Positions 1-38,441 of a stretch of 64,000 nt of DNA are shown piece by piece. Position 1 is the first letter of the stretch. Each line of letters starts with the position of its first letter. Made by a program: the position numbers and the translations under genes. The stretch lies in the IMG/VR virus record IMGVR_UViG_3300025640_001000. The stretch is one strand, 5' to 3'. The stretch is from a virus. Lineage: Duplodnaviria; Caudoviricetes. A model generated the notes under the pieces. That model searched no databases. It was not told where the DNA came from and worked only from the letters and a program-made list of their open reading frames with translations.

Positions 1-1787
1 GAGATTTAAGTGGCGATAATAAATTGTCAGGTAAAGATATAGACATCAATTGGGCATACCTTCAAACAAAATTACTTGCAGAATCCGAGTGGTCGGAAAA
101 TATAGCAAAATCAAACGAAACTGATAAATGCAATGACAATCCTGCAAAATGCTCACCAGTTGATGCTCAAGGCAATGTTACTCAGGCAGTAAATAAATGT
201 GGAGATCCTGCAAACTGGAGGTTAAATGACACATATACAGGTAATGGTTCGAACGAATGCCCACCGTGTTGTCAATATCTTCCTACAAATTTCATTGAAA
301 AAATGCTCGATTTGTATGAAGCAAATCAGGGTGCGGGTATTGCAGAAACCAACACTGAATTTGGTCCTACTGTTGAAGACAATGTTGCCGATCTCCCTGG
401 TACACTTGAACTTGGTTCTCCACTTGGAAAACCTCAAGTAAATCTTTTAAAAAGGTGGACATTAGACGATCAACCAAACTCTTCATCTGACAACGGTGCT
501 ACCAGCAAAGCAGTGGAATCATTTTCAGGTGACTTGAGTGCAACTTTGAATGACGCGTGGTGGAGGGCAAAAACTACTGCAACGGATATGTTGCAACTCG
601 GGTCAACAGCTAGTGTAGAATTTGACACAGGTGGTGCTTTAAGCAACGAAGGAAACTGGACTATACATTTTAAAGCTATTCCAAACTGGGGATCGAGTGG
701 GAGCAATCAAATCCTTTCCATTGGAAACATGACCCTCTCAACTGGAAAAAAACTTTTGACTCTAAGAGAAGCAAATAACCGACCATATTATTTTGTATTT
801 CCTAATGAAGTAGAAAAATCTACATATAATAATCAGCTTATTGATTTTTATTTTCAAAGAGTTACACAGGGTGTTAAAATGTTTATAGATACTGGTACGG
901 GACCTAAATTATGTCCACAATCTGTTGTAGGTGTGATTCCTGTGATAATAGAAGACAACGATTCTCCTTTAATTATATACGGTACTGGTGTTAAGCACTT
1001 GAAAGATCTTTGGATTGCTGATGGTTCATTGAGTTCAACACAAATCACTAAAATGACTCAAGATAGGTTTGATGTATATAGAGCAAAAAATGATTTAAAT
1101 GTTAGTGAAGCATTTATCGGATTTTTGGATCAAACTAACGATATATACGGAAACTGGTTAAGAATTTTCCGAACCAATGACTCGGCTTTATGGAAAGGTC
1201 AACGACCAGACTTGTGGCAAACACCACCAGCTGGTTCGGCAAATGGATTTTCAACAAACAATAGAAATCATTGCTTGAAGTTAGGAGCCGATACTCGTAA
1301 CATGAAATTGGAAAATATAAATTTTAAAGGTAATTTTACCGTAGGGGCATGGATTAGAACTGGTAAGGTAGATGAACCTTTTATTAAATTTCAGGATATG
1401 TCAGACACGAAATCATTTGGTATCCAGGTGAATGGTGCTAAAACAAAACTGCAAACTAAAGCAACGGGATTATCTATGGCTTGGCCAGGACCTATAAATC
1501 ATGATTTTTCCACAATGGAAACTGACTGGTTTCATATTGTTATTGTCAAAAATCGTAATACAATTGGATTTTGGATAAACGGAGCAACGGGTGACGATAT
1601 GCACGTTACACTTTCTGATGCTGATATAAATGCACTTGGAAATACTAGATTTTGTTTTTTCGGAAGTACATCAAATCCGGTTTATATAGCAGATGTTCGT
1701 GCTTATCATTATGCATTAAGTCATGTTCCTGCAAATGGATTTGGACCAAGAAGTTCGTGGCCATTCATAGATGATATAAAAGCATAA
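1..1787 (+). CDS. 5'-truncated modular protein: dockerin/EF-hand-like motif, Cys-rich segment, two LamG/concanavalin-like domains (putative virion protein)
   Basis: The frame is open to the window edge (nt 3 onward reads DLSGDNKLSGKDIDINWAYL, dockerin-like), so TTG at 24 is probably not the start. The C-terminus has LamG motifs (FTVGAWIR, WFHIVIV, FWING, IADVRAY). Confidence 0.65.
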   Translation, partial: DLSGDNKLSGKDIDINWAYLQTKLLAESEWSENIAKSNETDKCNDNPAKCSPVDAQGNVTQAVNKCGDPANWRLNDTYTGNGSNECPPCCQYLPTNFIEKMLDLYEANQGAGIAETNTEFGPTVEDNVADLPGTLELGSPLGKPQVNLLKRWTLDDQPNSSSDNGATSKAVESFSGDLSATLNDAWWRAKTTATDMLQLGSTASVEFDTGGALSNEGNWTIHFKAIPNWGSSGSNQILSIGNMTLSTGKKLLTLREANNRPYYFVFPNEVEKSTYNNQLIDFYFQRVTQGVKMFIDTGTGPKLCPQSVVGVIPVIIEDNDSPLIIYGTGVKHLKDLWIADGSLSSTQITKMTQDRFDVYRAKNDLNVSEAFIGFLDQTNDIYGNWLRIFRTNDSALWKGQRPDLWQTPPAGSANGFSTNNRNHCLKLGADTRNMKLENINFKGNFTVGAWIRTGKVDEPFIKFQDMSDTKSFGIQVNGAKTKLQTKATGLSMAWPGPINHDFSTMETDWFHIVIVKNRNTIGFWINGATGDDMHVTLSDADINALGNTRFCFFGSTSNPVYIADVRAYHYALSHVPANGFGPRSSWPFIDDIKA

Positions 1788-1794
1788 TTTTACA

Positions 1795-2394
1795 ATGATA
1801 AACGATAAGCATAAGTTTATCTTTGTAAGAGTTACTAAAACTGCATCAACTTCTATAACTGATTGTTTAGAAAAAAGTGTAAAATTGGACTCATATAAAT
1901 GGTCAGTTGTCCAACTAGAAATAAAAGAAAAATGGCAGGATGACGAGAATCATATTCCGATGTGGTTCATAGAAGAAAATATTTCTGATAAAAAGTTTAA
2001 ATCTTACTTTAAATTTTCGTTTGTAAGAAATCCATTTGACAAGTTAGTATCAGCATATGGGTATGATATAAATTGGCATTGCAAGAATAAAATAAAAAAT
2101 GATAATTTAGATACCTTTGCTAGATATATTAAAAGTGGTTTTGGGACACGATTGAAAAACTCATCACAGTATGATTTTACATATGGATGTGATTTCATCG
2201 GAAGATTTGAAAACCTTCAAGAAGACATCAATGTTGTCTGCGACAAAATTAAAATTCCACAACAACAACTTCCACATAAAAACAAATCAAAACACAAATC
2301 TTACAGTGAATACTACGATGACGAAACAAAGCAAATTGTTGCGGAAAAATTCGCAAAAGACATTGAGTATTTCGGTTATGAATTTGGAGAATAG
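1795..2394 (+). CDS. Sulfotransferase family 2 protein
   Basis: KFIFVRVTKTASTS (5'-PSB loop), FSFVRNPFDKLVS (3'-PB motif), C-terminal DFIGRFENLQED...YFGYEFGE. Confidence 0.8.
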   Translation: MINDKHKFIFVRVTKTASTSITDCLEKSVKLDSYKWSVVQLEIKEKWQDDENHIPMWFIEENISDKKFKSYFKFSFVRNPFDKLVSAYGYDINWHCKNKIKNDNLDTFARYIKSGFGTRLKNSSQYDFTYGCDFIGRFENLQEDINVVCDKIKIPQQQLPHKNKSKHKSYSEYYDDETKQIVAEKFAKDIEYFGYEFGE

Positions 2395-2396
2395 GA

Positions 2397-2999
2397 ATGA
2401 AAAAATATACAATTACAAAATCGAAAGAAAGCAAGTATGTTTGGTTTCAAATAGCAAAAAATGCGTCGCGTACGACTGTCAATTATTTAAATGAAAACAC
2501 AAAGGTAGACTTTGGATTTCCACTCTACCTTAACAAAGATGCTGGATATCAAAAACCATATGAAAGTGAATATGATGACTATTTTAAATTTACAATAGTT
2601 AGAAATCCGTGGGATAGAATTTTAAGTTTTTATTTAAATAAAATACATGGCAAAGATGTGTACACAGAAAATTATTCCAGTTTTTCTGAATGTAAAACAC
2701 TTAGAGATACTATTTCAATATTAATGACAAAAAATCTTAAAGATTGTGATGTTCATTATCAACTACAAATCGAATGCTTTCCATCTGATAATATTGACTT
2801 TATAGGTCGTTTCGAAAACCTCCAACACGACTTCAATATAATCTGCGACAAAATCGGAATTCCACGACAACAACTTCCACACAAAAACAAAACAAAACAC
2901 AAACACTACACAGAATATTACGATGATGAAACTCGTCAAATTGTTGCAGAAAGATATGCACAGGACATTGAGTATTTCGGATATAAATTTGGAGAGTGA
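2397..2999 (+). CDS. Sulfotransferase family 2 protein
   Basis: WFQIAKNASRT, TIVRNPWDRILS, same conserved C-terminal block. Confidence 0.8.
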   Translation: MKKYTITKSKESKYVWFQIAKNASRTTVNYLNENTKVDFGFPLYLNKDAGYQKPYESEYDDYFKFTIVRNPWDRILSFYLNKIHGKDVYTENYSSFSECKTLRDTISILMTKNLKDCDVHYQLQIECFPSDNIDFIGRFENLQHDFNIICDKIGIPRQQLPHKNKTKHKHYTEYYDDETRQIVAERYAQDIEYFGYKFGE

Positions 3000-3002
3000 G
3001 GG

Positions 3003-3596
3003 ATGATTATATCTAAAAAACATAATTTTATTTATATTGCAGTTTCTAAAACAGGATCGACGTCGATACATAAAGCATTTTCAAATTTAGATGATGAAAC
3101 ACTTTTTATTGAAAAAGAAAATGAAGATAATAAAGATAGAGTTAATAAATTTATATATAAACATATTAAAGCAACTGACTTAAAAAAACAAATTGAAAAC
3201 TATGATGAACATTTTAAGTTTTCTTTCGTTAGAAATCCATATGATAGAGCTGTGTCTTGGGTTTACTATTATTATAGAAACAGAAAGATTAATTTAGATG
3301 AACACTCCTTTAAAGAATTAATTTTTAAATTCCCAGACTGGATATGGACCGGCCAACATGAGTTTCTATTTGAAGATAATAAAAATTCAATGAATTTTGT
3401 AGGTAAAGTTGAAAACTTCCAACAAGACTTCAACATAATCTGCGACAAAATTGGAATTCCAAAACAAGAACTTCCACACAAAAACAAAACAAAACATAAA
3501 CACTACACCGAATACTACGATAAAGAAACAAAACAAATTGTTGCAGAAAAATACAGGAAAGACATTGAGTATTTCGGATATGAATTTGGAGAATAA
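3003..3596 (+). CDS. Sulfotransferase family 2 protein
   Basis: FIYIAVSKTGSTS, FVRNPYDRAVS, same conserved C-terminal block. Confidence 0.8.
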   Translation: MIISKKHNFIYIAVSKTGSTSIHKAFSNLDDETLFIEKENEDNKDRVNKFIYKHIKATDLKKQIENYDEHFKFSFVRNPYDRAVSWVYYYYRNRKINLDEHSFKELIFKFPDWIWTGQHEFLFEDNKNSMNFVGKVENFQQDFNIICDKIGIPKQELPHKNKTKHKHYTEYYDKETKQIVAEKYRKDIEYFGYEFGE

Positions 3597-3599
3597 ACC

Positions 3600-4259
3600 G
3601 TGAATATATTTGAAGAAATGATTAATAAAACTGGAAAATCTAAAGATTTTTTTTTCATTCAGATAGGATCAAATGATGGAGTTCGAAACGATCCGTTATA
3701 CAAGTTTATCTGTAAATTTAATTGGTCTGGTATCTGTGTAGAACCTGTTCCTTATTTATATAATAAATTGCAAAAACTTCATGTGATGCGTAAAAATATT
3801 AGTTGCAGGAATGTTGCAGTTTCCTCCACTGGTGGTAATATGACTTTTTATTATATTAAAGAAAACCAACACGACCAAACAGACTGGGCGAGTGGTAACG
3901 GCCTGGGTTCTTTTAATAAAGAAATAGTAATGAAACATCAAAACGGAGTGTATGACTTTGATGATAATTTTTCTAAGATGGAGGTTAAGACGATTACATT
4001 TAGTGACTTAACTAGTGGTGTACCTAAAATTGATTTACTTCATATTGATGCAGAGGGGTATGATTTTGAAATAATTAAAACAATAGATTTTACTAAAACA
4101 ATACCTTCATTTATTTTGTTTGAACATAAGTGGTTAGATGATAAAAATGAAGTTTATGAATTTTTAAAAGAACATAAATATAAATGCTTAGACTTAAACA
4201 ATAAGTCGGATACACTTGCAATACACGAAGATTGCAAGCTTGCAGAGTACAATCGATGA
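3600..4259 (+). CDS. FkbM family SAM-dependent methyltransferase
   Basis: FIQIGSNDG, GICVEP, IDLLHIDAEGYDFEII motifs. Confidence 0.85.
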   Translation: MNIFEEMINKTGKSKDFFFIQIGSNDGVRNDPLYKFICKFNWSGICVEPVPYLYNKLQKLHVMRKNISCRNVAVSSTGGNMTFYYIKENQHDQTDWASGNGLGSFNKEIVMKHQNGVYDFDDNFSKMEVKTITFSDLTSGVPKIDLLHIDAEGYDFEIIKTIDFTKTIPSFILFEHKWLDDKNEVYEFLKEHKYKCLDLNNKSDTLAIHEDCKLAEYNR

Positions 4260-4969
4260 AAAAGGCAATTTACCAACTTACTATAAAACCATTAGAGTTT
4301 ACTGACATACGAAATAAAAAACAGGAATTCGAAGTAACCCGATGTATACCTACTGTGGTCGAGTATGCAAAAAATGTAAATGCAGATTATATAATGTTAA
4401 ACGAGGATAATCTACCGAGTTGGGTTCTAAATGAAATTATAAAAAAAGATGGTAGTTATGTAAGAGCATTGATTGCCAAATGTTTGTTATTTAAGGTATG
4501 GGCATCAACTGAATATGATCAAATTTTGTTTTTAGATAATGATATCCAAGTAATTGGAGAACGTGACATATTTAATGAAAATTTTGACATAGCAACTCGT
4601 CACTATGAAAAAATTAGACAAGACCGTGCGACTAAATACTTTGGTCGTCCAATGACCCCGTGTAATACCGCGGTCATGGTAATGAATAAAGAATATATTA
4701 AAAAGTTATCAAAAATAAAATTTAATTGGGAAGAGATGTTGAAAAAATGCCATGAATATAAAGGTAAAGTTGGCGAACGATACTTTAGTGGATATTTAGG
4801 TGAGTTTTTTTATATGCATTGTCTAGATGAATTAAAAACTAAACCAGTGGATTTATCTGTTGATAAATGGACTAAAGATTATATAGGATATAAATACAAT
4901 CCGAATTTCTTCAAAGATATTTCAGAATATAATTTTATTCACTGGGTTGGCACAGAATATTTAAAATAA
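4256..4969 (+). CDS. Putative GT-A glycosyltransferase
   Basis: YDQILFLDND (DxD), NTAVMV, terminal FIHWVG. The ATG at 4256 overlaps the upstream stop (ATGA). Confidence 0.6.
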   Translation: MKKAIYQLTIKPLEFTDIRNKKQEFEVTRCIPTVVEYAKNVNADYIMLNEDNLPSWVLNEIIKKDGSYVRALIAKCLLFKVWASTEYDQILFLDNDIQVIGERDIFNENFDIATRHYEKIRQDRATKYFGRPMTPCNTAVMVMNKEYIKKLSKIKFNWEEMLKKCHEYKGKVGERYFSGYLGEFFYMHCLDELKTKPVDLSVDKWTKDYIGYKYNPNFFKDISEYNFIHWVGTEYLK

Positions 4970-5384: not shown

Positions 5385-5793
5385 GGGGGTATTCTGGATT
5401 CGATTTGTATTTAGATATCCAAACTGCACGTGAAGGATAATACACGGCCTTCTCAAAATGTATTAAATTGTTTAAATGGCGAAGATACATTCGTTGCAGA
5501 CCTTCTCGCAGACGCAGAAGCAGAATTCTCTGCTTTAGAAGAAGCGGAAGCTGTGTTGGTGGCATAAATAAGCCCACCCCGTCACCCAAATGATCACACG
5601 ACTAGTTTGGTGTTGGCGTCAACAATCGTGGAACCAGAGATTGTTTTTTCGTTGGAAACTCTGTATAACAATAAAACGAATAGAAAAGGTAGACTTGTTT
5701 GTTGGGTAACTTTTTGAAATTTACGACAAAATAAACGTGTAGACGTTTGGAAAGAAGAATAGAAAGACGCGGGTTCGACTCCCGCTACCTCCA
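5385..5793 (+). ncRNA. ssrA: tmRNA (SsrA); predicted tag (A)GEDTFVADLLADAEAEFSALEEAEAVLVA at 5478-5567
   Basis: Acceptor stem GGGGGTA/TACCTCC with G3:U70 and discriminator A; 5' GGATTCGA; T-arm GCGGG-TTCGACT-CCCGC; helix 2 TCCAAAC..GCACGT / ACGTGT..GTTTGGA; PK1 GAAGG/CCTTC plus TAATACA/TGTATTA; TAAAT before the resume codon; CCA not encoded. Confidence 0.93.
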
Positions 5794-5898
5794 GAAGTCT
5801 TTTAATTTAATATTGGAAGATTACTGAAGGTAGTTGAAAAACTACTTCCAACAGAGATTTGATTTGACAAATTATAAAAACTATCATATTTATATTGT

Positions 5899-7061: not shown

Positions 7062-7295
7062 ATGATGGAATATGAAGTAATTGATACTTTTGGTAATCGA
7101 GTTATTGGTGTATACGAAACGAGGGATGCCGCGATATATGCAATTAGATTGTATTGTGTACAAAAGATGATGAACAAGGTGAGTTTGTTTGACCAAGACT
7201 TTGTGAATCTTGTTGAAAACGGAACTGAGATAACATATGAAAACCCACTTGGTTATTTCCCCACAAAACCAAAGTTTTTATTAAACGAAGTATGA
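7062..7295 (+). CDS. Hypothetical protein (MMEYEVIDTFGNRVIG...)
   Basis: Start moved to the ATG after the AGGGAG SD; stop overlaps the next start. Confidence 0.6.
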   Translation: MMEYEVIDTFGNRVIGVYETRDAAIYAIRLYCVQKMMNKVSLFDQDFVNLVENGTEITYENPLGYFPTKPKFLLNEV

Positions 7296-7855
7296 TAAGT
7301 CATACCCACAATTTTATTTTTATTCACATTCCCAAAACAGGAGGATCTTCAGTTGATGATGTATTGAAGAAGTATGTAAGGCGATGGGTTCTGCATGAAT
7401 ATGTATATCCAGATGCAGTACATAAAGCAGAAAAACGCAACGGATTCAAAAACTATTTTTCGTTTTGCTTTGTTAGAAATCCGTGGGATAAAATAGTTTC
7501 TCAGTATCATTTTAATCGGGATAAGTTCGGCATGACGGATTATACGTTTGACGAATATGTTCATGCGTTCAATGAAGGCAAAAGAATTTCTTGGTTTAAT
7601 CCGGACTTTTTGTCATGGATGACTGACGATGACGGTAATATGCTTATGGACTTTGTAGGAAGGTTTGAAAAATTGCAGGAAGATTTTGATTATGTATGTG
7701 ACCAAATTAAAATTCCAAAACAAGAACTTCCACATCACGTTAAAACTGAAAACAGAACACATTATACAGAATACTATAACGAAGAAACAAAGCAAATAAT
7801 TGCGGAAAAATACATGAACGACATCGAGTATTTCGGGTATGAATTTGGAATCTGA
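7292..7855 (+). CDS. Sulfotransferase family 2 protein
   Basis: MISHTHNFIFIHIPKTGGSS, FVRNPWDKIVS, YFGYEFG. Confidence 0.85.
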   Translation: MISHTHNFIFIHIPKTGGSSVDDVLKKYVRRWVLHEYVYPDAVHKAEKRNGFKNYFSFCFVRNPWDKIVSQYHFNRDKFGMTDYTFDEYVHAFNEGKRISWFNPDFLSWMTDDDGNMLMDFVGRFEKLQEDFDYVCDQIKIPKQELPHHVKTENRTHYTEYYNEETKQIIAEKYMNDIEYFGYEFGI

Positions 7856-16238: not shown

Positions 16239-19200
16239 ATGGCCATTGTTAAAAAACGAACCTCTCATGTATGGATCACCTCAGTAGATGGATGTGAAAA
16301 TAAACCTATTGATGATTATTCTGAATATGTTAATTCACTTCTTGCGGTAAATGGTGATAAACAAGAATATATCAGTAAATCACCACACAACATTACCGAA
16401 TTTAATTGTGGTTCTACATATACTTTATTTTCCGACAAAGTAAATTATTATGTTCCCAACTTGGTTGAATCAAATATTGATAAAGATGAAGGTAGAATAA
16501 GTCCTCATATTTTTGAACGATTTGTAATGTATGGTTTAGATGAATATTACCTTGATGCCAACGGAATTTATATTTTAACATCCACATTCAAAAACAGAAA
16601 ACCCACATACACTAATCGTGAGGGAACATGGAAAATATTTTGGGAAACCGACACAAAGTGGAATTTAGTGCCAACTGCATTCAATTCAGTTGAACCTCCA
16701 TTTCTTGATAAACCTTTATTGAATGATCACAATGAACCAACAAGTGGTTTTTATACAGGTCAAAATCAAAAAGGATATACTTCTCATTCTATTAAATCAT
16801 TTGAAATAACTGATTTGATTGATTACTATGTTACTGCAAATGGAAACTACAATGTTACGTTTTTCTTTAAAAATGATCGTCAAACATATCGTCACGAAAC
16901 TAATCGTTGGTGGATTTGGTGGGATTCAAATAAAAACAGATGGGAACTCACTTACTCAGAAAACGATTCATACGAACGACCATATACAGATAGATTGTTC
17001 AATTTAGATGATGATGTAATTGGAGGTTTGTGGGAAAGTTTAGATGGAGTGCAAAAAGGATTGGGTCCCAATTCTCCTGCGTTACCTCCCACACCAACAC
17101 CAACTGCCACTCCGACACCAACTGCTACACCAACTCCGACACCAACTCCGACACCAACTCCGACTGAAGTTATAAATGAAATTGTGGATGTAGCTTCAGG
17201 TGATGATTTTACTTTGATTTTAAAAACCACCGGAAAAGTGGAAGTAACTGGTAACAACGAACATGGTTCGTTGGCAACCGGAGATAGACTTACAAAAGAT
17301 TACAAACGAGAATCAAAAATTTCTGATGTAAAAGCAATTGCGGCGGGAAAACGACATTCTTTATTTTTGAAAAATGATGGTTCTTTGTATGTGTGTGGTG
17401 ACAATTCATATGGTCAATTGGGAAATACTGATGTAACAAGTTCGGTGTCAGACCCAATGTTGGTGGAATCTGCTGACGTGATAAGTATCTCATGTACTGC
17501 GTTTGGTTCTTTGTTCGTTAAAAATAATGGAAAAGTTTATGCGTTCGGATACAATAAAAACGGAACACTTGGAACAGGATCGTTTGATAATATAACAACT
17601 CCTATTGAAATCAACAACAAACATACTTTGACAAATGTCACGATGGGATATGATCCAAAAACCGTGACAAATACAAACGGAAATCAAATGATTCGGGATG
17701 AAGTTTCTAGAAGCTTCAAATCAGTAAACAATAATTGTATAAATTATACAGAAGAACGAGGTTTGGTTTTCGATTTCAATGAAAGAAACGATTTCTTTGA
17801 TATGGGAAATGTTCACAATGAAATATTCAAAACAGGAACATTTTCATTTTCATTTTGGTGCAATCTACGTTCTCATCAATCAACCGAACACAATACACGT
17901 GGTGGAATGTTAATTTCAAAGTGGTATTCAAGTGATGCGTTGTGGTTGAGAAATTCATTTATAATTTATGCTTCAGGAACATTTGTATCTGCACATGAAA
18001 ACTCAGTAACACATATACTTGATGAATCTGGAAACTCTGCTAGTTTACCTCTTAATACTTGGTTGCATATGGCATATGTACTTGAAGACGGAAAACTTAA
18101 CATTTATATAAACGGAGAACAACAACACATTTCCAACAAAAATCACATACATAGATTTTCTGATCAAGCAACCTCCCGATTAGCTTTGGGTATTTTGCAC
18201 CACAACAAAAGCTATGCACTCAATGGAATGATGGATGATTTCAGAATGTTTGATAAAACTTTATCTGATGGTGACATTATGTCGTTGTACAAAAACGATG
18301 CTTATTTTGGTGACGATGTAGAATTAACTGAGTTTCCTGAAATGAAAGAAGTAACATCAGGTTACTCTCATTCATTTTTAATATCAAAGCACAACGAACT
18401 TTATGGTTTTGGTCAAAACGACCACGGACAACTTGGTGATTCAACTCTTGAAAACTCATTTGCTCCAAAAAAAGTGTATGAAGGTAGAATTAAAAAAGTT
18501 TCTGCTGGATCTGCTCATAGTATCGCATTAACTGAAGATGACCGATTATTAATGGCAGGTAGAAACGATGTAGGGCAAATTGGAGCAGGAGCTGCACCTG
18601 GATACAGAAAGTTCACATACATTCAAAAACCAGAGATTGTCAACTTTGCAGCCGGTGCTGGTCATAGTTTGATTTTAAACTATAAAGGCAATCTGATGGT
18701 CACCGGTAAAAATACTGATGGTCAACTTGGAACAGGAAACTTTAGAAATCAAAATACATTTTTAGCAAACAATATTCAAAAGGTTATCAATGTATTTGCT
18801 GGTGCGAAAAATAGTTACTTGTTGTTGTCTAATGGTAAGTTACTTGGAATGGGTGACAATGATTTATATCAGTTAGCAGATGGAACAACATCTGACAGAA
18901 CAGATCCAGTTGAAGTTGGAAACGAAGCAATTCCTCCGGAGACTCCTACTCCTACTCCTACTCCTACTCCAACCTACAATGAGTTTGATACAGATATGGA
19001 GTGTGATGTAACCTTTGATTATTGGTTGCAAAATGCACCAACAAAACAAGGAATGTCAGATTTTGCAAAATATCAAAAAACATTCACATTGAATCCATTC
19101 TCTGTTCAAAGAGTAATGCAATTCGAATTTGCATCTACTCACATAAACGAAGGTAGGCATCTTGAAATAAAAGACTTGGAGTTATCGTCAGAAAAAACTG

Positions 19201-22200: not shown

Positions 22201-23600
22201 GTCGTGGCAACTCTGAAGGTGGTGATGGACCATGGGAAGTTTCTCCGTTCGTTCATGCTCCTGAACCAAAGGGTTGGAAAAATGACGGAATCAGTGTAAT
22301 TGTAGAAACAGACGCACCCAAAGGAGTAAATTTAATTGACGAGTCACTTCGTGCATCTTGGCACGTATCATCAGGAACATTACCAAATACCGCGGAGGTA
22401 AACGGAAGTCCTGTTGGATTCGTTGAATATACAGGTGACATTAATTTTGATAAACCAACTCATGTTAAAAATATAAAAGTATCTGCTTCTTCGCAACAAG
22501 ATACTTGGATACGTGGAATTGAACTTCAGCAAAATAAAACTCCATCCGAAAATGTTGCACCTTATTACTACATAGATAGTAAAATCTCATCTGAACATCT
22601 TCCTGCGTTTACTTTATCGTTTTTCTATAATGTTCAAGATTACAACGAAGTTGATATTGCAGATATGACAAGTCCAATGTCAGGTGCACAAGGAGTATTT
22701 TGTTTTAACTATAAACCATCTGAGTTTGTTAGAATGTTTACATTAAAAAACAAACAATTTTCACCAAGTGTTCCAACTAAATATTTTGATAATATAGTTC
22801 CTACCACGGGTACTAGTTTATACATTGATGGAGGACCTTTTAAAACTCCTCAACTATTGGCCGCAGATTTACAACGAAATAAAACATATAGTGTAACAAT
22901 TCGGTATGCTGAACCAGATGAACAAGCAACTCAAGAAGATAATCCATCAAGATACATTAGAACTGAAACTGGTTATGATTTTGGAACTGATCCAGGATCA
23001 GTAGAAACTCAGGTAGTAAATGAACACACAGATTCCGAGGAATCTGCCGAAGTTATGACATTAGAGTATTTGTTGGAAAACATACATTTGATAGATGAAT
23101 ACGGAGTAGATTTCTTTGACAATGTTTTTATCAAAGTAACAAATACAGGAAAACTATCAGGTTACAATTCATCTTATACAAAATATGCAACTGGCAACCG
23201 CACATGGTATCTTCAAAAAGGAACGAACGGAGCTCGTTGGGCATACGATAATAGACATCCATTTAAACGATTTAATTTGTATTTAAAATCATGGCCAGGA
23301 TCAAGAAGATGTATAGTGATCAAAAAACAAATCAAAACAAGAGATTTAAGTAAAGGTCAGTTTGATGTGACACTAGTTGACACAAGTACAACTTCTAAAA
23401 CAAAAATCGTAAAGTCGGTGGAAAATCACAATTTCATATTTGATTGGACTAAAATTAATAAACTTAGTTTCGGTGGTGGAGCAAATTCTGCATTTGGAGG
23501 ATTTAGAATGTATGATAGAATATTATCAGACCAAGAAGCAGAAAAAATTTATGATTTGAGTAATCCAAGATTCAATCAACTTGGTAATACATATCCCTAG
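16239..23600 (+). CDS. Giant mosaic protein (2453 aa): shared N-terminal domain, RCC1 propeller with inserted LamG, FG-GAP propeller, three internal repeats, PT linkers
   Basis: GDNSYGQLG-type repeats; WLHMAYV..DDFRMFD (LamG); DKFGESVA/DHFGISVA/GAVYVF (FG-GAP); four (PT)n tracts; IEDLIENP..RPxYLQ..IKSW repeated. Confidence 0.8.
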   Translation: MAIVKKRTSHVWITSVDGCENKPIDDYSEYVNSLLAVNGDKQEYISKSPHNITEFNCGSTYTLFSDKVNYYVPNLVESNIDKDEGRISPHIFERFVMYGLDEYYLDANGIYILTSTFKNRKPTYTNREGTWKIFWETDTKWNLVPTAFNSVEPPFLDKPLLNDHNEPTSGFYTGQNQKGYTSHSIKSFEITDLIDYYVTANGNYNVTFFFKNDRQTYRHETNRWWIWWDSNKNRWELTYSENDSYERPYTDRLFNLDDDVIGGLWESLDGVQKGLGPNSPALPPTPTPTATPTPTATPTPTPTPTPTPTEVINEIVDVASGDDFTLILKTTGKVEVTGNNEHGSLATGDRLTKDYKRESKISDVKAIAAGKRHSLFLKNDGSLYVCGDNSYGQLGNTDVTSSVSDPMLVESADVISISCTAFGSLFVKNNGKVYAFGYNKNGTLGTGSFDNITTPIEINNKHTLTNVTMGYDPKTVTNTNGNQMIRDEVSRSFKSVNNNCINYTEERGLVFDFNERNDFFDMGNVHNEIFKTGTFSFSFWCNLRSHQSTEHNTRGGMLISKWYSSDALWLRNSFIIYASGTFVSAHENSVTHILDESGNSASLPLNTWLHMAYVLEDGKLNIYINGEQQHISNKNHIHRFSDQATSRLALGILHHNKSYALNGMMDDFRMFDKTLSDGDIMSLYKNDAYFGDDVELTEFPEMKEVTSGYSHSFLISKHNELYGFGQNDHGQLGDSTLENSFAPKKVYEGRIKKVSAGSAHSIALTEDDRLLMAGRNDVGQIGAGAAPGYRKFTYIQKPEIVNFAAGAGHSLILNYKGNLMVTGKNTDGQLGTGNFRNQNTFLANNIQKVINVFAGAKNSYLLLSNGKLLGMGDNDLYQLADGTTSDRTDPVEVGNEAIPPETPTPTPTPTPTYNEFDTDMECDVTFDYWLQNAPTKQGMSDFAKYQKTFTLNPFSVQRVMQFEFASTHINEGRHLEIKDLELSSEKTAPFLVEILNQEIIPPPELPDYQSYVITDKSYDLVALKNENIDLQSSIANDYKPVGLTSTILTIEDLIENPNLITELGGPQALDNIGIGVREPLKLFGGSTSTNLYYESSIIRPFYLQLGRKGLLHTYNNAHVFAPHGLFIKSWRGSRKYAIRTNSLNDNIDTSYKLNVTINVPPLTSACVLLAENSEGTPKISQKLFSLDTNAINDKFGESVAMTKTDAIVGSHYDSDTTSQAGSVYFMQLKTQNEIDSWVLQQKIPNPDRHTGDHFGISVAISDYVAVVGANNANGVNRNTGAVYVFYKSVENYWQFAQKLEAPDGETGDNFGMSVTIDATDDVQRIVVGAYTHGETDSGGAYVFETNPIRNTEAINLKPVYTFTQKLVPNSPDTNNNYFGRSLSLFKHQLVVGAWGDSNEAHKSGCVYFYNLMPKNAPAPRLSEDIELVDGPSALSSNSPFGFKLIGKSFHPTDMADAYFGFSVAIHSTIALVGCHGDSTKGEKAGSVFVFRKSEGTWKHYTTLYPDNKVNSNHEYGYQVAVHYNRFIVSAFRDDVEKQDAGSCYLYAFDGEDCRKLKRIVSLDSSAGDMLGSGVTIHKDYAMVGASGEDFKNAKDSGCVYTIDIPDNITFVDHEPTPTPTPTPTPTPTPSPSIASDECEVTLYYDVHLKDGEESSILNKEYHLKKVFKKSDKSQTITEKLIVLTDPMLINGDPKLNFIKTFKALPGEHTKLDVMRDGVDIHFYNKVIDDGDCQKKLEDCHIIYSYVLPPIHYECSFGEIPPTPTPTPTPTPEPILDYEVTEYGLTANNYDLLAIGQKLFRHTIAQDYEEFNMIPTLIYIEDLIENPRLITEIGVTNLNNAGIVCRVPGKLSATLGGSTNEYYYDSGTKYRPYYLQIGKAGYLHTYGGTHVFARHDIYIKSWPHNYRYLVKTVGKSIEEVKPLSVQYTSTSREMYEPSGFRNHKPFWTGSVTIPSSLGGSGRPVDSYIWYENNHWNWNTQFSGNEKLHCRGNSEGGDGPWEVSPFVHAPEPKGWKNDGISVIVETDAPKGVNLIDESLRASWHVSSGTLPNTAEVNGSPVGFVEYTGDINFDKPTHVKNIKVSASSQQDTWIRGIELQQNKTPSENVAPYYYIDSKISSEHLPAFTLSFFYNVQDYNEVDIADMTSPMSGAQGVFCFNYKPSEFVRMFTLKNKQFSPSVPTKYFDNIVPTTGTSLYIDGGPFKTPQLLAADLQRNKTYSVTIRYAEPDEQATQEDNPSRYIRTETGYDFGTDPGSVETQVVNEHTDSEESAEVMTLEYLLENIHLIDEYGVDFFDNVFIKVTNTGKLSGYNSSYTKYATGNRTWYLQKGTNGARWAYDNRHPFKRFNLYLKSWPGSRRCIVIKKQIKTRDLSKGQFDVTLVDTSTTSKTKIVKSVENHNFIFDWTKINKLSFGGGANSAFGGFRMYDRILSDQEAEKIYDLSNPRFNQLGNTYP

Positions 23601-31212: not shown

Positions 31213-34200
31213 ATGGCAGACAATAATTCAGTTAGACCAGGAGATGTATCTGATACAGGTGATGGAATAAATGTAAAAGATTTATTGCATTTAAGTGATG
31301 TTATTGATAATCGTTCAAGTGCAACGGCAAATTCAAATCTTTATGATATCAACGAAGATTCTACCATTTCTCAACAAGATGCAGATGATTTGTATGATAT
31401 ATTAAGAGGAGACAAACCTGCACCTGATGCAATCCAGAGAGTTGAATTCAGATGGGTATATAACGAAGAACAAGATGACCGATTTCTTCAAATCAAAAAT
31501 TGGAATGGTTATCAAAATTTTGTGGCCATGGGTAATGTATCTGAGTATGCGAATGTATATTGGTTTTATGAAAATACTTTTAATGCACTTGATGAAGATG
31601 AATCCAGGTTGGTTTTACGACCATCCGTTGCTGATAACTATCCGTTTGAAAAAAACTTTGATGTAGATGAAGATACACACATAGAGTTTATACTTAAAGA
31701 AGGAGTTTATAGATTATACATAAATGGGTTTCCTGCTATAATGTATTGGGTCGGAGCTGGTGGACAAGTTAAACTAGACGATGCGAATCCACCGGTTTAT
31801 ACAGACGGAGAATCTGAAAGTGGTTATTATCCACTTTCTAAAAAGTCGATGTCTTGTTTTATTTCCACGTGGGAAATTGGTGCAGACTCACTTGAAATTG
31901 AACTTCCGTTGGGTGAACACAGTCACTGGCCAATAAATCAGTTTAGTGTTGATTATGGTGATGGCACACCTGTATTTTATACAGGCGACACCGAAACACC
32001 CGAGAAAGTTTCTCACACATATGCTCAGGCAGGAACTTATGAAATTAAAATCACAGGGAAACTTAAAACTTGGTCATTTAATAACGATGAGTTTTCATCA
32101 AATATAACAAACATATCAAGTTGGGGTTGTTTGGATTTAACAACAACTACACATCAATTTGATGGATGCATTAATCTTGATGTCACTGCAACTGATTATC
32201 CTACTATTGGCAATAACACTAGTTTAGAATGTTGTTTTCAGAATTGCTCTTCGTTGACAGGTGGAGTCAGTAATTGGAAAGTAAACAATGTGGTAAACTT
32301 TGAAAAGATGTTTAACGGATGCATAAACTTTAATGACGATGTTTCAAACTGGAATACATCATCTGCAACAAACATGATTTCAATGTTTATGAATGCTTCG
32401 TCTTTTAATATTGATGTTAACACCAAGCAAATCGGAAACGAAACTGCGTGGGATGTATCAAAAGTGACGGATGCGAATAGAATGTTTGCGGGGTGTACAC
32501 TTTACGATCAATCAATTCATTTATGGAACATTAGTATTATACAAAATATGGAATTAATTTTCAATGGTGTAACTCTTTCTTTGTGTAATTACGTAAAAAT
32601 GATAAGAAACTGGGCAGGATTAACATTTGAAAACACTAATATAAAATTCGGAGCTTCATCGTGTAAATATGATTATGCTACTCAGTCATATCGAATACGA
32701 TTACAACAATCTATGAATATAACAGATGAAGGCTTAGATACAGAAAATGTATGTGAGGGGTCTGTGCTTTATGCAACACTTGTAAACCCAACACTTGCTC
32801 ATTTAAATTCTGGAAATGATCTTATGGATTCACGAAAATGGCAAGCCGTGTGGGACGATCCCAATAATCAATATCAGTATGAGGCAATATTTCTTCCTTT
32901 TTATGATATAGATTATCAATTAAGTAAGTCACTTTATGATGCGGAAAACAATAAACTTAGTGATCATGTTAATGTAAACACTAAACCTTATTTAATGTTT
33001 GATGTAACATTTGAAAATTCTACATACAATTATGAACATACATGGTCTATAGACATCGGAACAGTTTTAATAATTGATGAACCGATGACAGATGATTGGA
33101 AAGCAACATTAAAAACTCAATATCCAACTGCTAGTATCGTAGATAATATAACAGAAATTGACTCTTTGGATGCAACCACGACCACAAAAATAATAATCCC
33201 AGTTGGAAATTTATATGTTGCAACGGTTGAAGATTACATTTCAATGGAAAGACCGTTACCTACACAATTACCTTGGCCTGGAGAGCATATGTATGTTTTT
33301 CGTAAAAATGAAACATCTACTGATATGATAAATTCCGAAAAGGTACGAGTGGATAATTTCGACTTAGGATATGTAAGTGCAAATTTTGCAGGTTACCCAC
33401 AAACGATGTGTATGTATGTAGATAATGGATTATCTGGTATGATGGTGTATATGGTGAGAAGAACTCCCACAGATGCAAAAGATGATCGCATACAAGAAAT
33501 TGTTAACATTGAAGTGGTGATGAAAACATCCGGAGTTTGGAAAGATGCTCGTAAAATTGAGGACATAATTCCCGAAATAAGTCAATCAACACTTATGCCT
33601 AATATAAAAAAGTCAGGAAAAATTGTTTATTGTTCTCATGTTAAAAAATTATTGTTGTATTGTCACACAGGTTGTATTTGGTTAAATTATGATGATGTAT
33701 CAAATTCACTTTCATATCATCTTGAGAGTACTCCGGGTGGTGACCACGATTTTCCTGCACCCACTTACTCCGCATTTATAGATGCGAATCAAAACTTGGA
33801 TCTTTTGTATGAAGATGGAATTCGTAAGTTTTCGGATTCCGGATATTCAGAGAAACTGACGGTTGAATATACAATTCCAGGTGTATGTCGTGATCCACAT
33901 ATAAGATATAATCGTAAAAATGATACTATTGAAGTTACTTACTTTACTAGTGTAGATACATGGATTCCATTTAGTGGAAATTTAGTTTGTGTAAAAGATA
34001 GTTACACACTAGATCAAACTCTTCGTCCACAGAAAGTTACTTCATCTACAATGACAAAAAAGGTGGTTGATGAAACAGGAGAATCTATATATCCACAACT
34101 TTTTCCGAATCTGGGAGATCAACCACATTTTCATTACTCTGATGACTTCGCTTGTATGTCCATTTTTCCAGTAGGAGCATCTGATGATGTAAATTCTATT

Positions 34201-34629
34201 TACTTTCCTACAGAGTTTTATTGGAATGTAGGATCAGATAGAATGCCGCTGTTGTATCATAACACAGAAACACATCACACTCAATCATTTGAATTAGAGT
34301 GTGGTGTGTTGTTGTATGCCTGTATATCACATGGAATGTTAATTACACTTGAATATGACGAAGATGTTACACTTGCATCTAATAACATTTATATAAGATT
34401 CACTCAAATAAACACAAACGATCCAGTGAACATTCAATTGTCTCAAATTGGTGAACGAAAAAATATAAAAGATATGGGATTTCAGATTCCTGATCCTGAG
34501 GGTAATAATAAATATAATCCTACTCCAGATAGATTTACTTCATGGCAATATGGAGTATCTGGAGACGGTGATTGGTTATCGTTTGCTCCGAACGCAAACA
34601 AAGATATATTTTCTGTGTTGATAACTTAA
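31213..34629 (+). CDS. Dockerin-like + PKD-like + DUF285/BspA repeat mosaic protein
   Basis: GDVSDTGDGINVKDLLHL...DINEDSTISQQDADDL; VDYGDG..HTYAQAGTYEIKITG; WNTSSATNMISMF/WDVSKVT repeats. Confidence 0.75.
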   Translation: MADNNSVRPGDVSDTGDGINVKDLLHLSDVIDNRSSATANSNLYDINEDSTISQQDADDLYDILRGDKPAPDAIQRVEFRWVYNEEQDDRFLQIKNWNGYQNFVAMGNVSEYANVYWFYENTFNALDEDESRLVLRPSVADNYPFEKNFDVDEDTHIEFILKEGVYRLYINGFPAIMYWVGAGGQVKLDDANPPVYTDGESESGYYPLSKKSMSCFISTWEIGADSLEIELPLGEHSHWPINQFSVDYGDGTPVFYTGDTETPEKVSHTYAQAGTYEIKITGKLKTWSFNNDEFSSNITNISSWGCLDLTTTTHQFDGCINLDVTATDYPTIGNNTSLECCFQNCSSLTGGVSNWKVNNVVNFEKMFNGCINFNDDVSNWNTSSATNMISMFMNASSFNIDVNTKQIGNETAWDVSKVTDANRMFAGCTLYDQSIHLWNISIIQNMELIFNGVTLSLCNYVKMIRNWAGLTFENTNIKFGASSCKYDYATQSYRIRLQQSMNITDEGLDTENVCEGSVLYATLVNPTLAHLNSGNDLMDSRKWQAVWDDPNNQYQYEAIFLPFYDIDYQLSKSLYDAENNKLSDHVNVNTKPYLMFDVTFENSTYNYEHTWSIDIGTVLIIDEPMTDDWKATLKTQYPTASIVDNITEIDSLDATTTTKIIIPVGNLYVATVEDYISMERPLPTQLPWPGEHMYVFRKNETSTDMINSEKVRVDNFDLGYVSANFAGYPQTMCMYVDNGLSGMMVYMVRRTPTDAKDDRIQEIVNIEVVMKTSGVWKDARKIEDIIPEISQSTLMPNIKKSGKIVYCSHVKKLLLYCHTGCIWLNYDDVSNSLSYHLESTPGGDHDFPAPTYSAFIDANQNLDLLYEDGIRKFSDSGYSEKLTVEYTIPGVCRDPHIRYNRKNDTIEVTYFTSVDTWIPFSGNLVCVKDSYTLDQTLRPQKVTSSTMTKKVVDETGESIYPQLFPNLGDQPHFHYSDDFACMSIFPVGASDDVNSIYFPTEFYWNVGSDRMPLLYHNTETHHTQSFELECGVLLYACISHGMLITLEYDEDVTLASNNIYIRFTQINTNDPVNIQLSQIGERKNIKDMGFQIPDPEGNNKYNPTPDRFTSWQYGVSGDGDWLSFAPNANKDIFSVLIT

Positions 34630-35168
34630 TGATTTCACACGATAAGAAATTTATTTTTGTTCATGTTCCAAGAACTGGTGGAACGAGTTTAGAATCTTTT
34701 TTTTGTGAATCGCAACTTAAACACATCCATTTTAAACAAAAACATTCTAGGCATGAACATGAGTTACAAGATCATATTGATTATTTTTCTTTTTCTTTTG
34801 TAAGAAATCCGTGGGAAAGAATGTTGTCGTTTTACCTTTTTGATATAGTAGGTAGCACTAAATACTCTTTGTATAATTGGTTAAAATTAACTCGTATAAG
34901 AAATCGTTTTGCTCAATCTATGAGTTTTTTTATTATGCACAACGAAAAACCTAGAGTTAATTTTGTTGGAAGATATGAAAATTATCATACAGATGTGAAA
35001 TATATTTGTAACAAATTAAACATAGAATACGCAGAACTACCTGTTTTGAACAAAACAAATCATAATTATTATGTTGATTACTATGACGAGAAAACAAAAA
35101 AACTAGTTGAAAGTATGTATAAAGAAGACATACTGAATTTTGAATATGAATTTGGAAAAAATAACTGA
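34629..35168 (+). CDS. Sulfotransferase family 2 protein
   Basis: MISHDKKFIFVHVPRTGGTS, FVRNPWERMLS; start overlaps the previous stop (TAATG). Confidence 0.8.
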   Translation: MISHDKKFIFVHVPRTGGTSLESFFCESQLKHIHFKQKHSRHEHELQDHIDYFSFSFVRNPWERMLSFYLFDIVGSTKYSLYNWLKLTRIRNRFAQSMSFFIMHNEKPRVNFVGRYENYHTDVKYICNKLNIEYAELPVLNKTNHNYYVDYYDEKTKKLVESMYKEDILNFEYEFGKNN

Positions 35169-35783
35169 ATGATTTCTCACGACAACGGAGTAATTTATAT
35201 AGATATACCATTTTCGGGTGGAAGCTCTTTCAAAGAATTTTATATTGACAAGCATAAAGATTCAATGAAAACTATAGAAGGTGAAAATCGTCAAGCAGTT
35301 GATAAAGCAACGGGTAAGTATATAAAACAATTTTTTGATTATGATATTTTCACAATAGTCAAAAATCCATATCATCGTGCAGTTGATATGTGGTCAGTTG
35401 CTCAATCTAAATATAAAAAAACAAACATCAAAAAACAAACAATAGGTGAGTATTACGAGAATTTATTGAACAAGTGGGATTGTGCTGATGGAGATGCCAT
35501 TGTTCGTCAAGTTGATTATTTAAAAAGCAACAATGATTGTTACTTTGGAGTATCTGATGTTTCATTTGAAACAGAGCATTTGTTTTATTTTGAAGACTTG
35601 ATTGATTCAAAGTTAGATTCAATAAATTTGTTTTTTTCCGAAAATTATATGCCAAGGTTAGCATTTTATGTAGAGTTTTCTCCAAACGAATCTTGGAGGG
35701 ATCATTACGACAAACATTCTATTGAAATTATTAACTATATTTTTGACGAAGATTTTGAATATTGTGGTTATGGAAAAATTTAA
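35169..35783 (+). CDS. Divergent sulfotransferase family 2 protein
   Basis: IYIDIPFSGGSS (PSB Lys replaced by Phe), IVKNPYHRAV, DFEYCGY. Confidence 0.6.
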   Translation: MISHDNGVIYIDIPFSGGSSFKEFYIDKHKDSMKTIEGENRQAVDKATGKYIKQFFDYDIFTIVKNPYHRAVDMWSVAQSKYKKTNIKKQTIGEYYENLLNKWDCADGDAIVRQVDYLKSNNDCYFGVSDVSFETEHLFYFEDLIDSKLDSINLFFSENYMPRLAFYVEFSPNESWRDHYDKHSIEIINYIFDEDFEYCGYGKI

Positions 35784-35804
35784 TTTTACTATTTATTTAT
35801 AAGT

Positions 35805-38441
35805 ATGGAAGAGGATTTTTACTGCGGAGACATCGTTGAACCTGGTAGTCACATCTCATTGGATGATGTGATTCATTATTTTAATATATTTAATGGAGAC
35901 GTTCGTGAGTCTTCGTTATCGCCAACTCAACGCAAATTGCTAAACATTTTAAACTCAGAGCAATATGCTGGAGTAGACAAAACAAATCTTGATGAACTAT
36001 ATAATGTATTATCAGGAATTGCAGCTTCAGTATTATGCGTGGATCGTCCTGTTGAATGTTGTTTAGGAAAAAACGAAATTCAAACATACGGAACAACTGA
36101 AGAATATCCTGCTATAAAAGGAGTATCAGTTCAAGTATTTGAAGAAAACGGCCTTGTTTGTTTTAATGATTTAGAACTAGATGGATTGAGTTATCCATAT
36201 GGAGTTACTGTAAATAAAAAAGATGGAAGTTTCGTTTATGGTAAAATAAAAGCAACTGGAAAATTTACAAACAATGAAATTGTTTATTATTCACCTGCCG
36301 GAGATTTTTACACTGGTCGTTTAACAACAACTTCTGGATTTGATAATCAACTTGATTATGCGGGTGAATGTATCTTAGACGGAGAACCCATACCAAATCC
36401 AACACCAACACCAACATATGTTCCGAAACCTCCGTGTGAAGATCATGCGTGTAATTTAACATTAACTCCACATGATGAATATGTTAATTTCCAACGATCA
36501 TTTAGTATTCTTGGAAATGCCGGAACAGGAGAACGAGAATTAGATGGAAGTTCACAGGTAAAATACTTGGTTCCTGAAAAACTTCAAGTTAATACAATTA
36601 GTTCTCCTGGATATGCTTCTAATTGGGTTTGTGTACTTTTTGATAAACGGTACACTTTGCAAAATAGATTTGAATTTTTATGTACCACTCTTGAGTTTAC
36701 TGCAACCAGTGATCGTGATACAAGTGTTGGTTTTCTTGTTAAGCAGAACGATAGTTACTATCGTTATCAAATGGCCATTGGAACTAACTTTGATTTAAAC
36801 ATCAACGAGTTGCAATTATCACAAGATAGTTTCAAGAAAATTTATGGTGGTGGACCTGAACAACTTGATTTTTACAAAAATGCAGATTTTGAATTTGGAT
36901 TGGATTTTTCAAGTACAGGTTCTTCTACTTTTAGTGTAATAACAAAATTAAGCATTTGTCTTGGTGGAGATTTTCTAGAATCTGAAGAAGCACCCACAGG
37001 ACCAGTTCAACCTACTCCTACTCCTACTCCTACTTATATAGATGATTCTGGAAGTTTGTATCTTGCGAGTGGTGAAGAAACTGAAGTTCATATTCCAAGC
37101 ATAGAATTTTTTGGTTGTGCAGGAACTCCGTGGGCAAGTGTTAAACGAACGGGTGCTAAACCACGATTCGCAGCTAAATATGGTCATGGTCAGACTGGTG
37201 ATGAAAATGGTGGATTTAGTAGTTACTCACTTCAACAAAAAGCATTTGAATTTCGTGGCAATACAATTGTCATAGGAGCACCACAAAGCAGAAATACTGC
37301 GGGTAATGTATATGTGTGGAATAAAAATAAAAGTCTGCAATCTGATGTGATCACCGAAACGGTATGGAAAACTTCAGGTGGAGCAAATCCAAATCAATCG
37401 TGTGATCCAATAAATCAACAATTTAGAGGTGACATTGTTAATAGTGGTTCTAACCTCGGTGACTTCGTTGCACTTAATATAAACGGAACAACTGCATTTT
37501 GTGGAGTTCCGAATTTACCACAAGGAAATCAAACTTCTCAAGTCGCAGGTGGTTATATGGATGTACCGATCAATTCCAGTAATGGTCTTGCAACTTTAAA
37601 TCAAAGCACAACCAAGTGCCACCGTATGATAAATTATGCAAATGGTGCGATGAACATTTCAGGTATTGCAGTAGATGGAAGCAACAATACAGCATTTGCT
37701 CGTCCTGCGTATAGCAATGGAATTGGGGCTGTTCAAATTGGAACTAGTTATGTTTTTTCTCCTACCAGTTCCAACGGACGATTCGGATTGAGTAAAGCAG
37801 GATCAAGAGTGCTTGCATCAGGTAACAATTTCTTTGTTGTTTCAAATTATTCTATAGGTGTAGTTTATATAATAACAAAACAAGGAAATGTGTGGGCAAT
37901 TCGTTCAACGATAAGTGCGGATAATTTACCTCCTGAATTTTCGGACTTGAATGATTTTGGTTTTAATGTAAGTGCTACACCACCAAACAAAACTTCACAA
38001 TACATTGCAGTTCAGGGCAAAAAAACAAATGATCATGTTGTAACTGCGATATTTGGAATTAGTATAATGGGTATTGCAACTTATGCAAATGTAATTGATC
38101 ATGGTTATACAACTATGATGGGATTGTGTGTAAATCAACGAGAAAATTCTATGCTTGGTAACATGGTAGATGTGTATGTTGGAAATGCAACTTCAACAAT
38201 TGATCATTACAATGGATTAACAGGAACAAAAGTTTCAAATACAATTGCTCCTGAGCATGGAAAAATAATAGTAGCAGGAGAAAAAACAACATCTGTGTCT
38301 AATTTAGGTGCGTGTATATCCACGAACGGAACACAGGTCGCAGTTTCGTGTTCTGCATTTGCGTATCAACCAGATGCTCAAGGCAACAAAGTAAATGCGG
38401 GTAACAATTCGTTTATAATATTCGACGTACAAAATAGTTAA
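35805..38441 (+). CDS. Mosaic protein: degenerate dockerin-like N-terminus, PT linkers, C-terminal FG-GAP-like propeller
   Basis: CGDIVEPGSHISLDDVIHYF...VDKTNLDELYNVLSG; IVIGAP..AGNVYVW; NLGDFVAL. Confidence 0.6.
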   Translation: MEEDFYCGDIVEPGSHISLDDVIHYFNIFNGDVRESSLSPTQRKLLNILNSEQYAGVDKTNLDELYNVLSGIAASVLCVDRPVECCLGKNEIQTYGTTEEYPAIKGVSVQVFEENGLVCFNDLELDGLSYPYGVTVNKKDGSFVYGKIKATGKFTNNEIVYYSPAGDFYTGRLTTTSGFDNQLDYAGECILDGEPIPNPTPTPTYVPKPPCEDHACNLTLTPHDEYVNFQRSFSILGNAGTGERELDGSSQVKYLVPEKLQVNTISSPGYASNWVCVLFDKRYTLQNRFEFLCTTLEFTATSDRDTSVGFLVKQNDSYYRYQMAIGTNFDLNINELQLSQDSFKKIYGGGPEQLDFYKNADFEFGLDFSSTGSSTFSVITKLSICLGGDFLESEEAPTGPVQPTPTPTPTYIDDSGSLYLASGEETEVHIPSIEFFGCAGTPWASVKRTGAKPRFAAKYGHGQTGDENGGFSSYSLQQKAFEFRGNTIVIGAPQSRNTAGNVYVWNKNKSLQSDVITETVWKTSGGANPNQSCDPINQQFRGDIVNSGSNLGDFVALNINGTTAFCGVPNLPQGNQTSQVAGGYMDVPINSSNGLATLNQSTTKCHRMINYANGAMNISGIAVDGSNNTAFARPAYSNGIGAVQIGTSYVFSPTSSNGRFGLSKAGSRVLASGNNFFVVSNYSIGVVYIITKQGNVWAIRSTISADNLPPEFSDLNDFGFNVSATPPNKTSQYIAVQGKKTNDHVVTAIFGISIMGIATYANVIDHGYTTMMGLCVNQRENSMLGNMVDVYVGNATSTIDHYNGLTGTKVSNTIAPEHGKIIVAGEKTTSVSNLGACISTNGTQVAVSCSAFAYQPDAQGNKVNAGNNSFIIFDVQNS

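Follow-up and report, generated by a model that had tools for sequence, protein, structure and literature searches.

A probable divergent dockerin module at the N-terminus of an adhesin-like protein from a huge-phage-like contig

Few protein-protein connectors are as strong, or have been engineered as widely, as the coupling of cohesins to dockerins. Cellulosomal dockerins are usually C-terminal, and the scaffoldin is defined by its repeated cohesins. Many dockerin-like modules outside cellulosomes are not known to have a cohesin in the same genome. Non-cellulosomal modules of this type are reported to have been surveyed over three domains of life (Peer et al. 2009, cited in PMC2930009). Natural use of the cohesin-dockerin connector by phages is mentioned in the searchable literature in passing annotations only (PMC3558961; 10.1101/2024.01.25.577265). 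The 64,000-nucleotide stretch of viral DNA analyzed here (IMG/VR record IMGVR_UViG_3300025640_001000; hereafter the window, with genes and proteins designated by start position) encodes an adhesin-like protein, 31213, whose residues 10-66 most likely form a divergent dockerin-family module, with two F-hand segments in a three-helix fold, a loop 2 fully competent to ligate Ca2+ and an atypical loop 1. The finding adds to a known domain family a divergent member with an unusual carrier. A cellulosome-like assembly principle, put forward in a first-pass annotation of this DNA, is an unproven hypothesis that rests on a single good plug and a decayed one, with no socket detected.

The 31213 module resembles type I dockerins (PF00404; e.g., 2ccl_B, 4fl4_A, 4dh2_D, 5nrm_B and 1ohz_B) in its length of about 57 residues, in its two loop-helix segments that start with G-D-V, and in the regular 12-residue Ca2+ loop of segment 2, at 18-27% identity. 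The layout proceeds from loop 1 (residues 11-23, with one extra residue) through a helix (21-31), a short helix (41-44) and loop 2 (45-56, of regular 12-residue spacing) to a final helix (54-65). Two tandem F-hand segments, each a Ca2+ loop plus helix, are joined by a short linker within about 60 residues, as in dockerins. Unlike type I dockerins, the module occupies the very N-terminus of a protein without a signal peptide, its loop 1 has the extra residue and a Thr or Pro at position 5, its Pfam score is below the gathering value, its payload is a DUF285/PKD adhesin-like protein rather than a glycoside hydrolase, and it is encoded on a huge-phage-like contig with no cohesin or scaffoldin detected within the window. 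The peptides quoted in the first-pass annotation (the two-segment pattern of 31213, the start of gene 1 and the LDELYNVLSG of 35805) are all found at the positions given there. Of the two-repeat dockerin consensus read from them for 31213, the two-segment loop-helix organization and the regular loop 2 hold, but loop 1 departs from the consensus by its insertion and by its position 5.

The placement of the module in the dockerin family is largely established by transitive sequence similarity and a predicted fold, and homology of the module to type I dockerins, like which it would work, is very probable. A strict Ca2+-loop pattern of 12 residues, D-x-[DNST]-x-[DN]-x-x-[ILVF]-[STDN]-x-x-[DE], occurs twice in the 20,805 residues of the window open reading frames (ORFs) compared to 0.16 occurrences expected from shuffles (P about 0.006), and in both cases it lies among the 50 N-terminal residues of a protein; since the occurrences exceed the shuffle expectation, the pattern is real and not due to chance. 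While a Pfam scan of the whole 31213 protein does not list Dockerin_1, a scan of residues 1-75 alone has Dockerin_1 (PF00404) as its sole match (residues 18-58, 12.9 bits, E = 0.13), with no EF-hand family detected even at E <= 10. The hidden Markov model (HMM) check suggested in the first-pass annotation therefore returns Dockerin_1 on 31213, below threshold, but no EF-hand on this segment and no cohesin in the window.

An exhaustive phmmer search of residues 1-75 against 1.84 billion representative proteins identifies eight proteins at E <= 1e-3, none of which is an EF-hand protein. Five are orthologs, and the others are P0017 (E = 5e-6), P0018 (8.5e-5) and P0020 (5e-4), in which Pfam detects nine (268 bits), three (77 bits) and three (59 bits) Dockerin_1 domains, respectively. 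P0017 and P0018 have membrane-anchored or secreted features and represent cellular-type dockerin arrays; the 31213 module is 32-36% identical to the cellular dockerins. Based on 17 dockerin repeats excised from the three proteins, which served as an hhalign reference and as an HMM, the N-termini of the 31213 orthologs match dockerins with 89.7% hhalign probability (P = 1.8e-6), and 31213 is the only window ORF to score below E 0.1. In a MAFFT alignment, the module runs colinear with complete P0018 and P0020 dockerins, apart from the one extra residue in loop 1. Similarly to these and other non-cellulosomal dockerin-like modules, the 31213 module belongs to a protein unrelated to plant cell-wall degradation, and a cohesin is often not evident for such modules. 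By contrast, the non-cellulosomal modules are cellular and mostly exported, whereas that of 31213 is phage-borne, single-copy and N-terminal, with no export signal.

The fold predicted by AlphaFold2 (AF2) is consistent with these similarities. A model built from a 13-row alignment of orthologs, including divergent ones, and the three dockerin proteins reaches a best predicted local distance difference test score (pLDDT) of 68.7 and a predicted template-modelling score of 0.51, with helices at residues 21-31, 41-44 and 54-65. Foldseek comparison of this model to 350,542 chains places dockerins from cohesin-dockerin complexes at all of ranks 1-30, with template-modelling scores of 0.71-0.86 and root-mean-square deviations (rmsd) of 1.2-2.0 A over 56-67 columns; the E-values of only 0.03-1 are normal for a domain of this length. 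Against 48,161 representatives, VIA-align likewise ranks dockerins 1-14, with Z from 10.6 (2ccl_B, 61 residues superposed at rmsd 1.2) to 4.0; an unrelated chain follows at Z 2.7, and EF-hand proteins are not listed. The three-helix dockerin fold on which the first-pass annotation had made its proposal depend is, thus, predicted for the 31213 module.

A generic pair of EF-hand-like Ca2+-binding motifs, or a chance resemblance, unrelated to dockerins in either case, is a very improbable alternative. EF-hand pairs such as those of KChIP2, CIB1 and calsenilin have the same type of Ca2+ loop (D-x-D/N-x-D...D/E) followed by a helix, and these three proteins are the best matches of the module among PDB sequences (E 0.04-1); direct comparison to PDB sequences yields weak EF-hand and dockerin matches only. 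The sub-threshold Pfam score and the dockerin rows in the AF2 alignment are also compatible with this alternative. Unlike EF-hand pairs, however, 31213 begins loop 1 at residue 11, after MADNNSVRPG. Independently of any model, the few preceding residues could not accommodate an EF-hand's entering helix, which fits the loop-helix F-hand of dockerins. Neither AF2 model has a helix before residue 21. In addition, Pfam returns no EF-hand family, the significant non-orthologous matches across the protein library are dockerin arrays only, the fold searches yield dockerins only, with a gap in Z before the first unrelated chain, and the loop pattern is above chance.

Several results weigh against membership in the dockerin family. 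The Dockerin_1 score of 12.9 bits is below the Pfam gathering threshold of 22.9 bits, although this threshold is an operational cut-off and not a biological feature. The hhalign match to dockerins covers 26 columns only, with loop 2 and helix 3 aligned to one F-hand. Loop 1 is off the 12-residue consensus throughout the family, with an insertion of one or two residues and the Thr or Pro at position 5. Of the profiles made from phage sequences or orthologs alone, one has no match to PDB sequences and the other has weak EF-hand matches (E 0.17-1), none significant. An AF2 model from seven close orthologs has a pLDDT of 52.6, helices only at residues 21-31 and 54-65, and no Foldseek match. In the alignment for the better model, true dockerins account for three of the 13 rows, and a pLDDT above 55 is obtained in only one of its five models.

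Conservation in the module was compared across eight orthologs with identities down to about 41%. The helices are more conserved (0.85 and 0.78) than the Ca2+ loops (0.76 and 0.54) or the linker (0.64), as expected if the helices form an interface. At ligand positions 1, 3, 5, 9 and 12, loop 2 has D/E, N/D/T, D, S/T/D and D in all eight, compared to D, S/D, T/P, N/D and D in loop 1. His26 of helix 1 and Tyr61 of helix 3 are invariant in the aligned family and are retained in the 35805 copy (residues 24 and 66), making them candidate interface or core residues. A single syntenic locus of 6.3 kb (L001), found in one metagenome scan, encodes a ClpC-like protein, a deoxyribonucleotidase, a 31213 ortholog of 83% identity that retains the module, and sulfotransferases. 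Relative to this locus, non-synonymous and synonymous codon differences number 8 and 7 in the module and 174 and 156 in the whole gene; the ratios are alike, and the module is under the same constraint as the gene at large, with no sign in this comparison of any additional constraint on it.

The function of the module is considered from its carrier. Orthologs of 31213, of which a word-indexed homology search recovers close ones only, are all DUF285 proteins with the same N-terminus and domain architecture (Table 1). The module is joined to its payload by a short GDKPAPD hinge, and the N-termini of the 31213, 35805 and gene 1 proteins are neither signal-peptide-like nor hydrophobic. A second small module, unnamed and described here as GWYG...C (about 100-115 residues), is N-terminal in 38446, 56536, 57794, 58553, 59902 and 63483; it is also found at about residues 397-513 of 44484 and possibly in 14399 and 16239. 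Deposited phages contain no match to this GWYG module, which recurs in the window far more often than the dockerin-like module and occupies the same N-terminal position. Because of the extreme N-terminal position, the lack of a signal peptide, the binding-type C-terminal domains, the huge-phage-like contig and the use of GWYG in the same position nearby, the 31213 module may be an attachment end, i.e., a putative Ca2+-dependent plug whose partner would belong to the virion or to another large phage protein; this role is given a little less than an even chance. Where family membership and attachment role are graded as a single joint claim, the balance tips slightly in its favor.

In such an attachment mechanism, the module would fasten the adhesin to its partner through the conserved helices in a Ca2+-dependent manner, and the C-terminal domains (PKD-like and DUF285/BspA repeats) would face outward. 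As the protein has no export signal, a Ca2+-gated folding step is possible and, speculatively, the module may fold or dock fully only at external (seawater) Ca2+ levels. The arrangement is analogous, in function only, to the anchors of phage tail fibers and tailspikes, in which a small N-terminal module precedes a long, variable, binding-type C-terminal part, and the neighboring genes of the window follow the same plan with GWYG. Unlike known fiber and tailspike anchor domains, to which it has no sequence or fold relation, the 31213 module has a putative virion association only: no capsid, portal, terminase or other virion hallmark gene is found within the 64 kb, and for this reason the association of the dockerin-bearing proteins with the virion is inferred.

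Further results speak against an attachment role and in favor of a rather unlikely alternative, in which the module is a dockerin-fold Ca2+-binding cap that has no dedicated partner and instead stabilizes or switches the N-terminal fold at high external Ca2+. No cohesin is detected by Pfam on 16 large window proteins, which represent 64 kb of a larger contig, nor, at E <= 10, on ten excised unnamed modules of the window scanned by the same procedure that revealed the weak Dockerin_1 signal. A Cys-bracketed beta module (residues 75-200 of 35805) has Atlas neighbors with template-modelling scores below 0.5 and no cohesin among them; its neighbors in PDB sequences are uninformative, with nothing cohesin-like, and an iterative HMM search does not link it to other window ORFs. 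A scaffoldin, i.e., one protein with repeated cohesin modules, is likewise not found in the window. The tandem GWYG copies reported earlier for 38446 are confirmed, and the protein also has LamG; the suggestion that 38446 and 44520 (gene 44484) are scaffoldin-like is not sustained, as neither has repeated cohesins and the modules of 44484 are all different. The dockerin module is limited to one ortholog family, the DUF285 proteins, plus the degenerate copy on 35805, and is not found on many cargo proteins as a general plug-in tag would be. A partnerless cap is also consistent with the non-cellulosomal modules mentioned above, many of which are not known to have a cohesin in the same genome, and with retention of the 35805 copy despite the loss of its Ca2+ ligands. 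The conservation pattern points the other way, since conservation is higher in the helices, the part that contacts cohesin in solved complexes, than in the Ca2+ loops, as does the extreme N-terminal position, which mirrors that of GWYG in the neighboring adhesin-like genes.

The dockerin-like plug could also target a cohesin-like protein on a host or prey surface, such that the module itself would act in adsorption or host-surface attachment. This alternative is decidedly improbable. It accords with the nearest non-orthologous relatives, which are cellular-type dockerin arrays (two with the membrane-anchored or secreted features noted above), and with the near absence of real dockerins from deposited phage genomes, as might be seen if the module had been captured recently from a host system: in 50,697 deposited phage records, a nine-dockerin query has only two matches, each a short fragment from a gut metagenome. 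The 31213 module itself is absent from these records, and IMG/VR has no relatives detectable by the 31213 protein or by the module alignment. However, the identity to cellular dockerins is low (32-36%), and no host cohesin is known. The receptor-binding parts of phage fibers are, moreover, typically C-terminal, and it is the PKD-like and DUF285 domains of 31213 that are C-terminal of the module.

Extending the attachment role to a virion partner, a broader and improbable scenario would be that a huge phage mounts interchangeable adhesins through small N-terminal plugs, of which the dockerin plug meets millimolar Ca2+ only after lysis. Docking on a non-canonical, cohesin-like beta-domain socket of the virion would then be Ca2+-gated and might follow assembly, in a cellulosome-style display that is triggered by the environment. 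If the module does fasten the adhesin to the virion or to another phage protein, huge phages would have borrowed this connector for modular and exchangeable host-recognition gear, and a small, Ca2+-switchable, phage-derived tag would be available for testing. If the module is instead partnerless, it would be one more non-cellulosomal dockerin-like Ca2+ module, of use mainly in annotation.

Two other N-termini of the window have been compared to the 31213 module. That of 35805 aligns to the 31213 module family by hhalign (82%, P = 1e-5) over 60 columns spanning both halves, in agreement with its earlier description as a degenerate version. The helices are kept and the acidic ligands of loop 2 are gone; the segment has no direct hhalign match to dockerins and no Pfam match. 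A decayed paralog is the best interpretation of this sequence comparison. The gene 1 frame begins DLSGDNKLSGKDIDINWAYL and was earlier taken for a dockerin-like module truncated by the window edge; this interpretation is not upheld, as only eight residues extend beyond the edge relative to full-length orthologs of 602 residues, and a single loop-helix is present with no second half. The gene 1 N-terminus matches dockerins by hhalign (35-45%, P 2-4e-4) with one regular loop and helix, has no Pfam match and would be at most half a dockerin. A second F-hand around SPVDAQGNV was considered and is not supported. The relation of this lone Ca2+ loop-helix to the 31213 module is uncertain. A gene 1 relative of 33% identity, P0024, is recorded on a 566,177-bp contig, so that genomes above 0.5 Mb may exist among the relatives of this element.

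The Pro-Thr (PT) linkers noted in the first-pass annotation are real in three proteins (four in 16239, two in 35805 and three in 44484) but do not occur in 31213, and none connects its module to the payload. Other modules are shared among the large proteins. The domain that follows the 31213 module (begins VEFRW...LQIKN) matches the C-terminal domain of 44484 (LEFRW...LQVKN) weakly in two collinear segments (E 0.013 and 0.035) and also follows the module in the protein P0016; judged on sequence, it is possibly a further shared module. 44484 and 49515 have a domain of about 115 residues in common (BLAST 1.5e-18; phrog_15511), which contains a C...H..M-like motif, with a similar-looking motif at the N-terminus of 40363. 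By eye, a cupredoxin-like identity is possible.

Table 1. Positions of the dockerin-like modules, linkers and neighboring features in the window
Feature	Coordinates	Strand	Description or evidence
Adhesin-like protein 31213, 1138 residues	31213..34629	+	N-terminal dockerin-like module, unnamed domain (residues 75-235), PKD-like (241-283), DUF285/BspA-type repeats (336-454), large unnamed C-terminal region
Dockerin-family module of 31213, residues 10-66 (G10-G66)	31240..31410	+	Pfam, phmmer, hhalign, AF2, Foldseek, VIA-align
Loop 2 of the 31213 module	31345..31380	+	DINEDSTISQQD; positions 1, 3, 5, 9 and 12 ligand-type in 8/8 orthologs compared
Degenerate module paralog, residues 8-71 of the 878-residue protein 35805-38441	35826..36017	+	hhalign; segment ends LDELYNVLSG
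Single Ca2+ loop plus helix, extreme N-terminus of the 602-residue LamG_3 protein (gene 1, 3-1787)	3..86	+	hhalign
Four (PT)n linkers in the 2453-residue RCC1/LamG/FG-GAP protein 16239-23600	17085-17168, 18933-18977, 21081-21134, 21516-21551	+	
Two PT linkers of 35805	36387-36416, 37011-37037	+	Bracket unnamed domains
Three PT linkers of 44484-47513	44988-45035, 45561-45650, 46023-46220	+	Between modules all unlike each other
tmRNA gene, full-length	5385-5796	+	ORF-free gap between 4969 and 5899; ARAGORN tag peptide AEAEFSALEEAEAVLVA
VEFRW...LQIKN domain of 31213; LEFRW...LQVKN domain of 44484	31435-31917; 46686-47510		
Domain common to 44484 and 49515	46206-46583 (44484); residues 93-204 (49515)		
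S8 subtilase-like protein, 781 residues	24188-26533		
ClpC/ClpB-like AAA+ chaperone, 841 residues	28090-30615		
Six paralogous Sulfotransfer_2-like genes	1795-3596, 7292-7855, 34572-35783		About 200 residues each, 30-50% mutual identity

The contig is uncultured, marine, huge-phage-like and one-stranded, and its phage nature is well supported. The window is AT-rich (GC content 0.32-0.38) and tightly packed, with nearly all long ORFs on the + strand, and its gene functions are of phage type (clamp-loader subunit, HNH endonuclease, deoxyribonucleotidase, polymerase exonuclease and CCA-adding enzyme). Huge phages are known to carry transfer-messenger RNAs (tmRNAs), and the tmRNA gene of the window (Rfam RF00023, 122.8 bits compared to a cut-off of 47 bits) supports a phage-like context. 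DUF285 relatives are carried by many jumbo phages, with the best match in an uncultured phage of 462 kb.

Just upstream of the 31213 gene are genes for an S8 subtilase-like protein and a ClpC/ClpB-like AAA+ chaperone; the latter is about 50% identical to bacterial homologs and is syntenic in L001. Among the six Sulfotransfer_2-like genes, two directly separate 31213 from 35805, and sulfotransferases adjoin the 31213 ortholog in L001 as well. These proteins may modify neighboring surface proteins or glycans.

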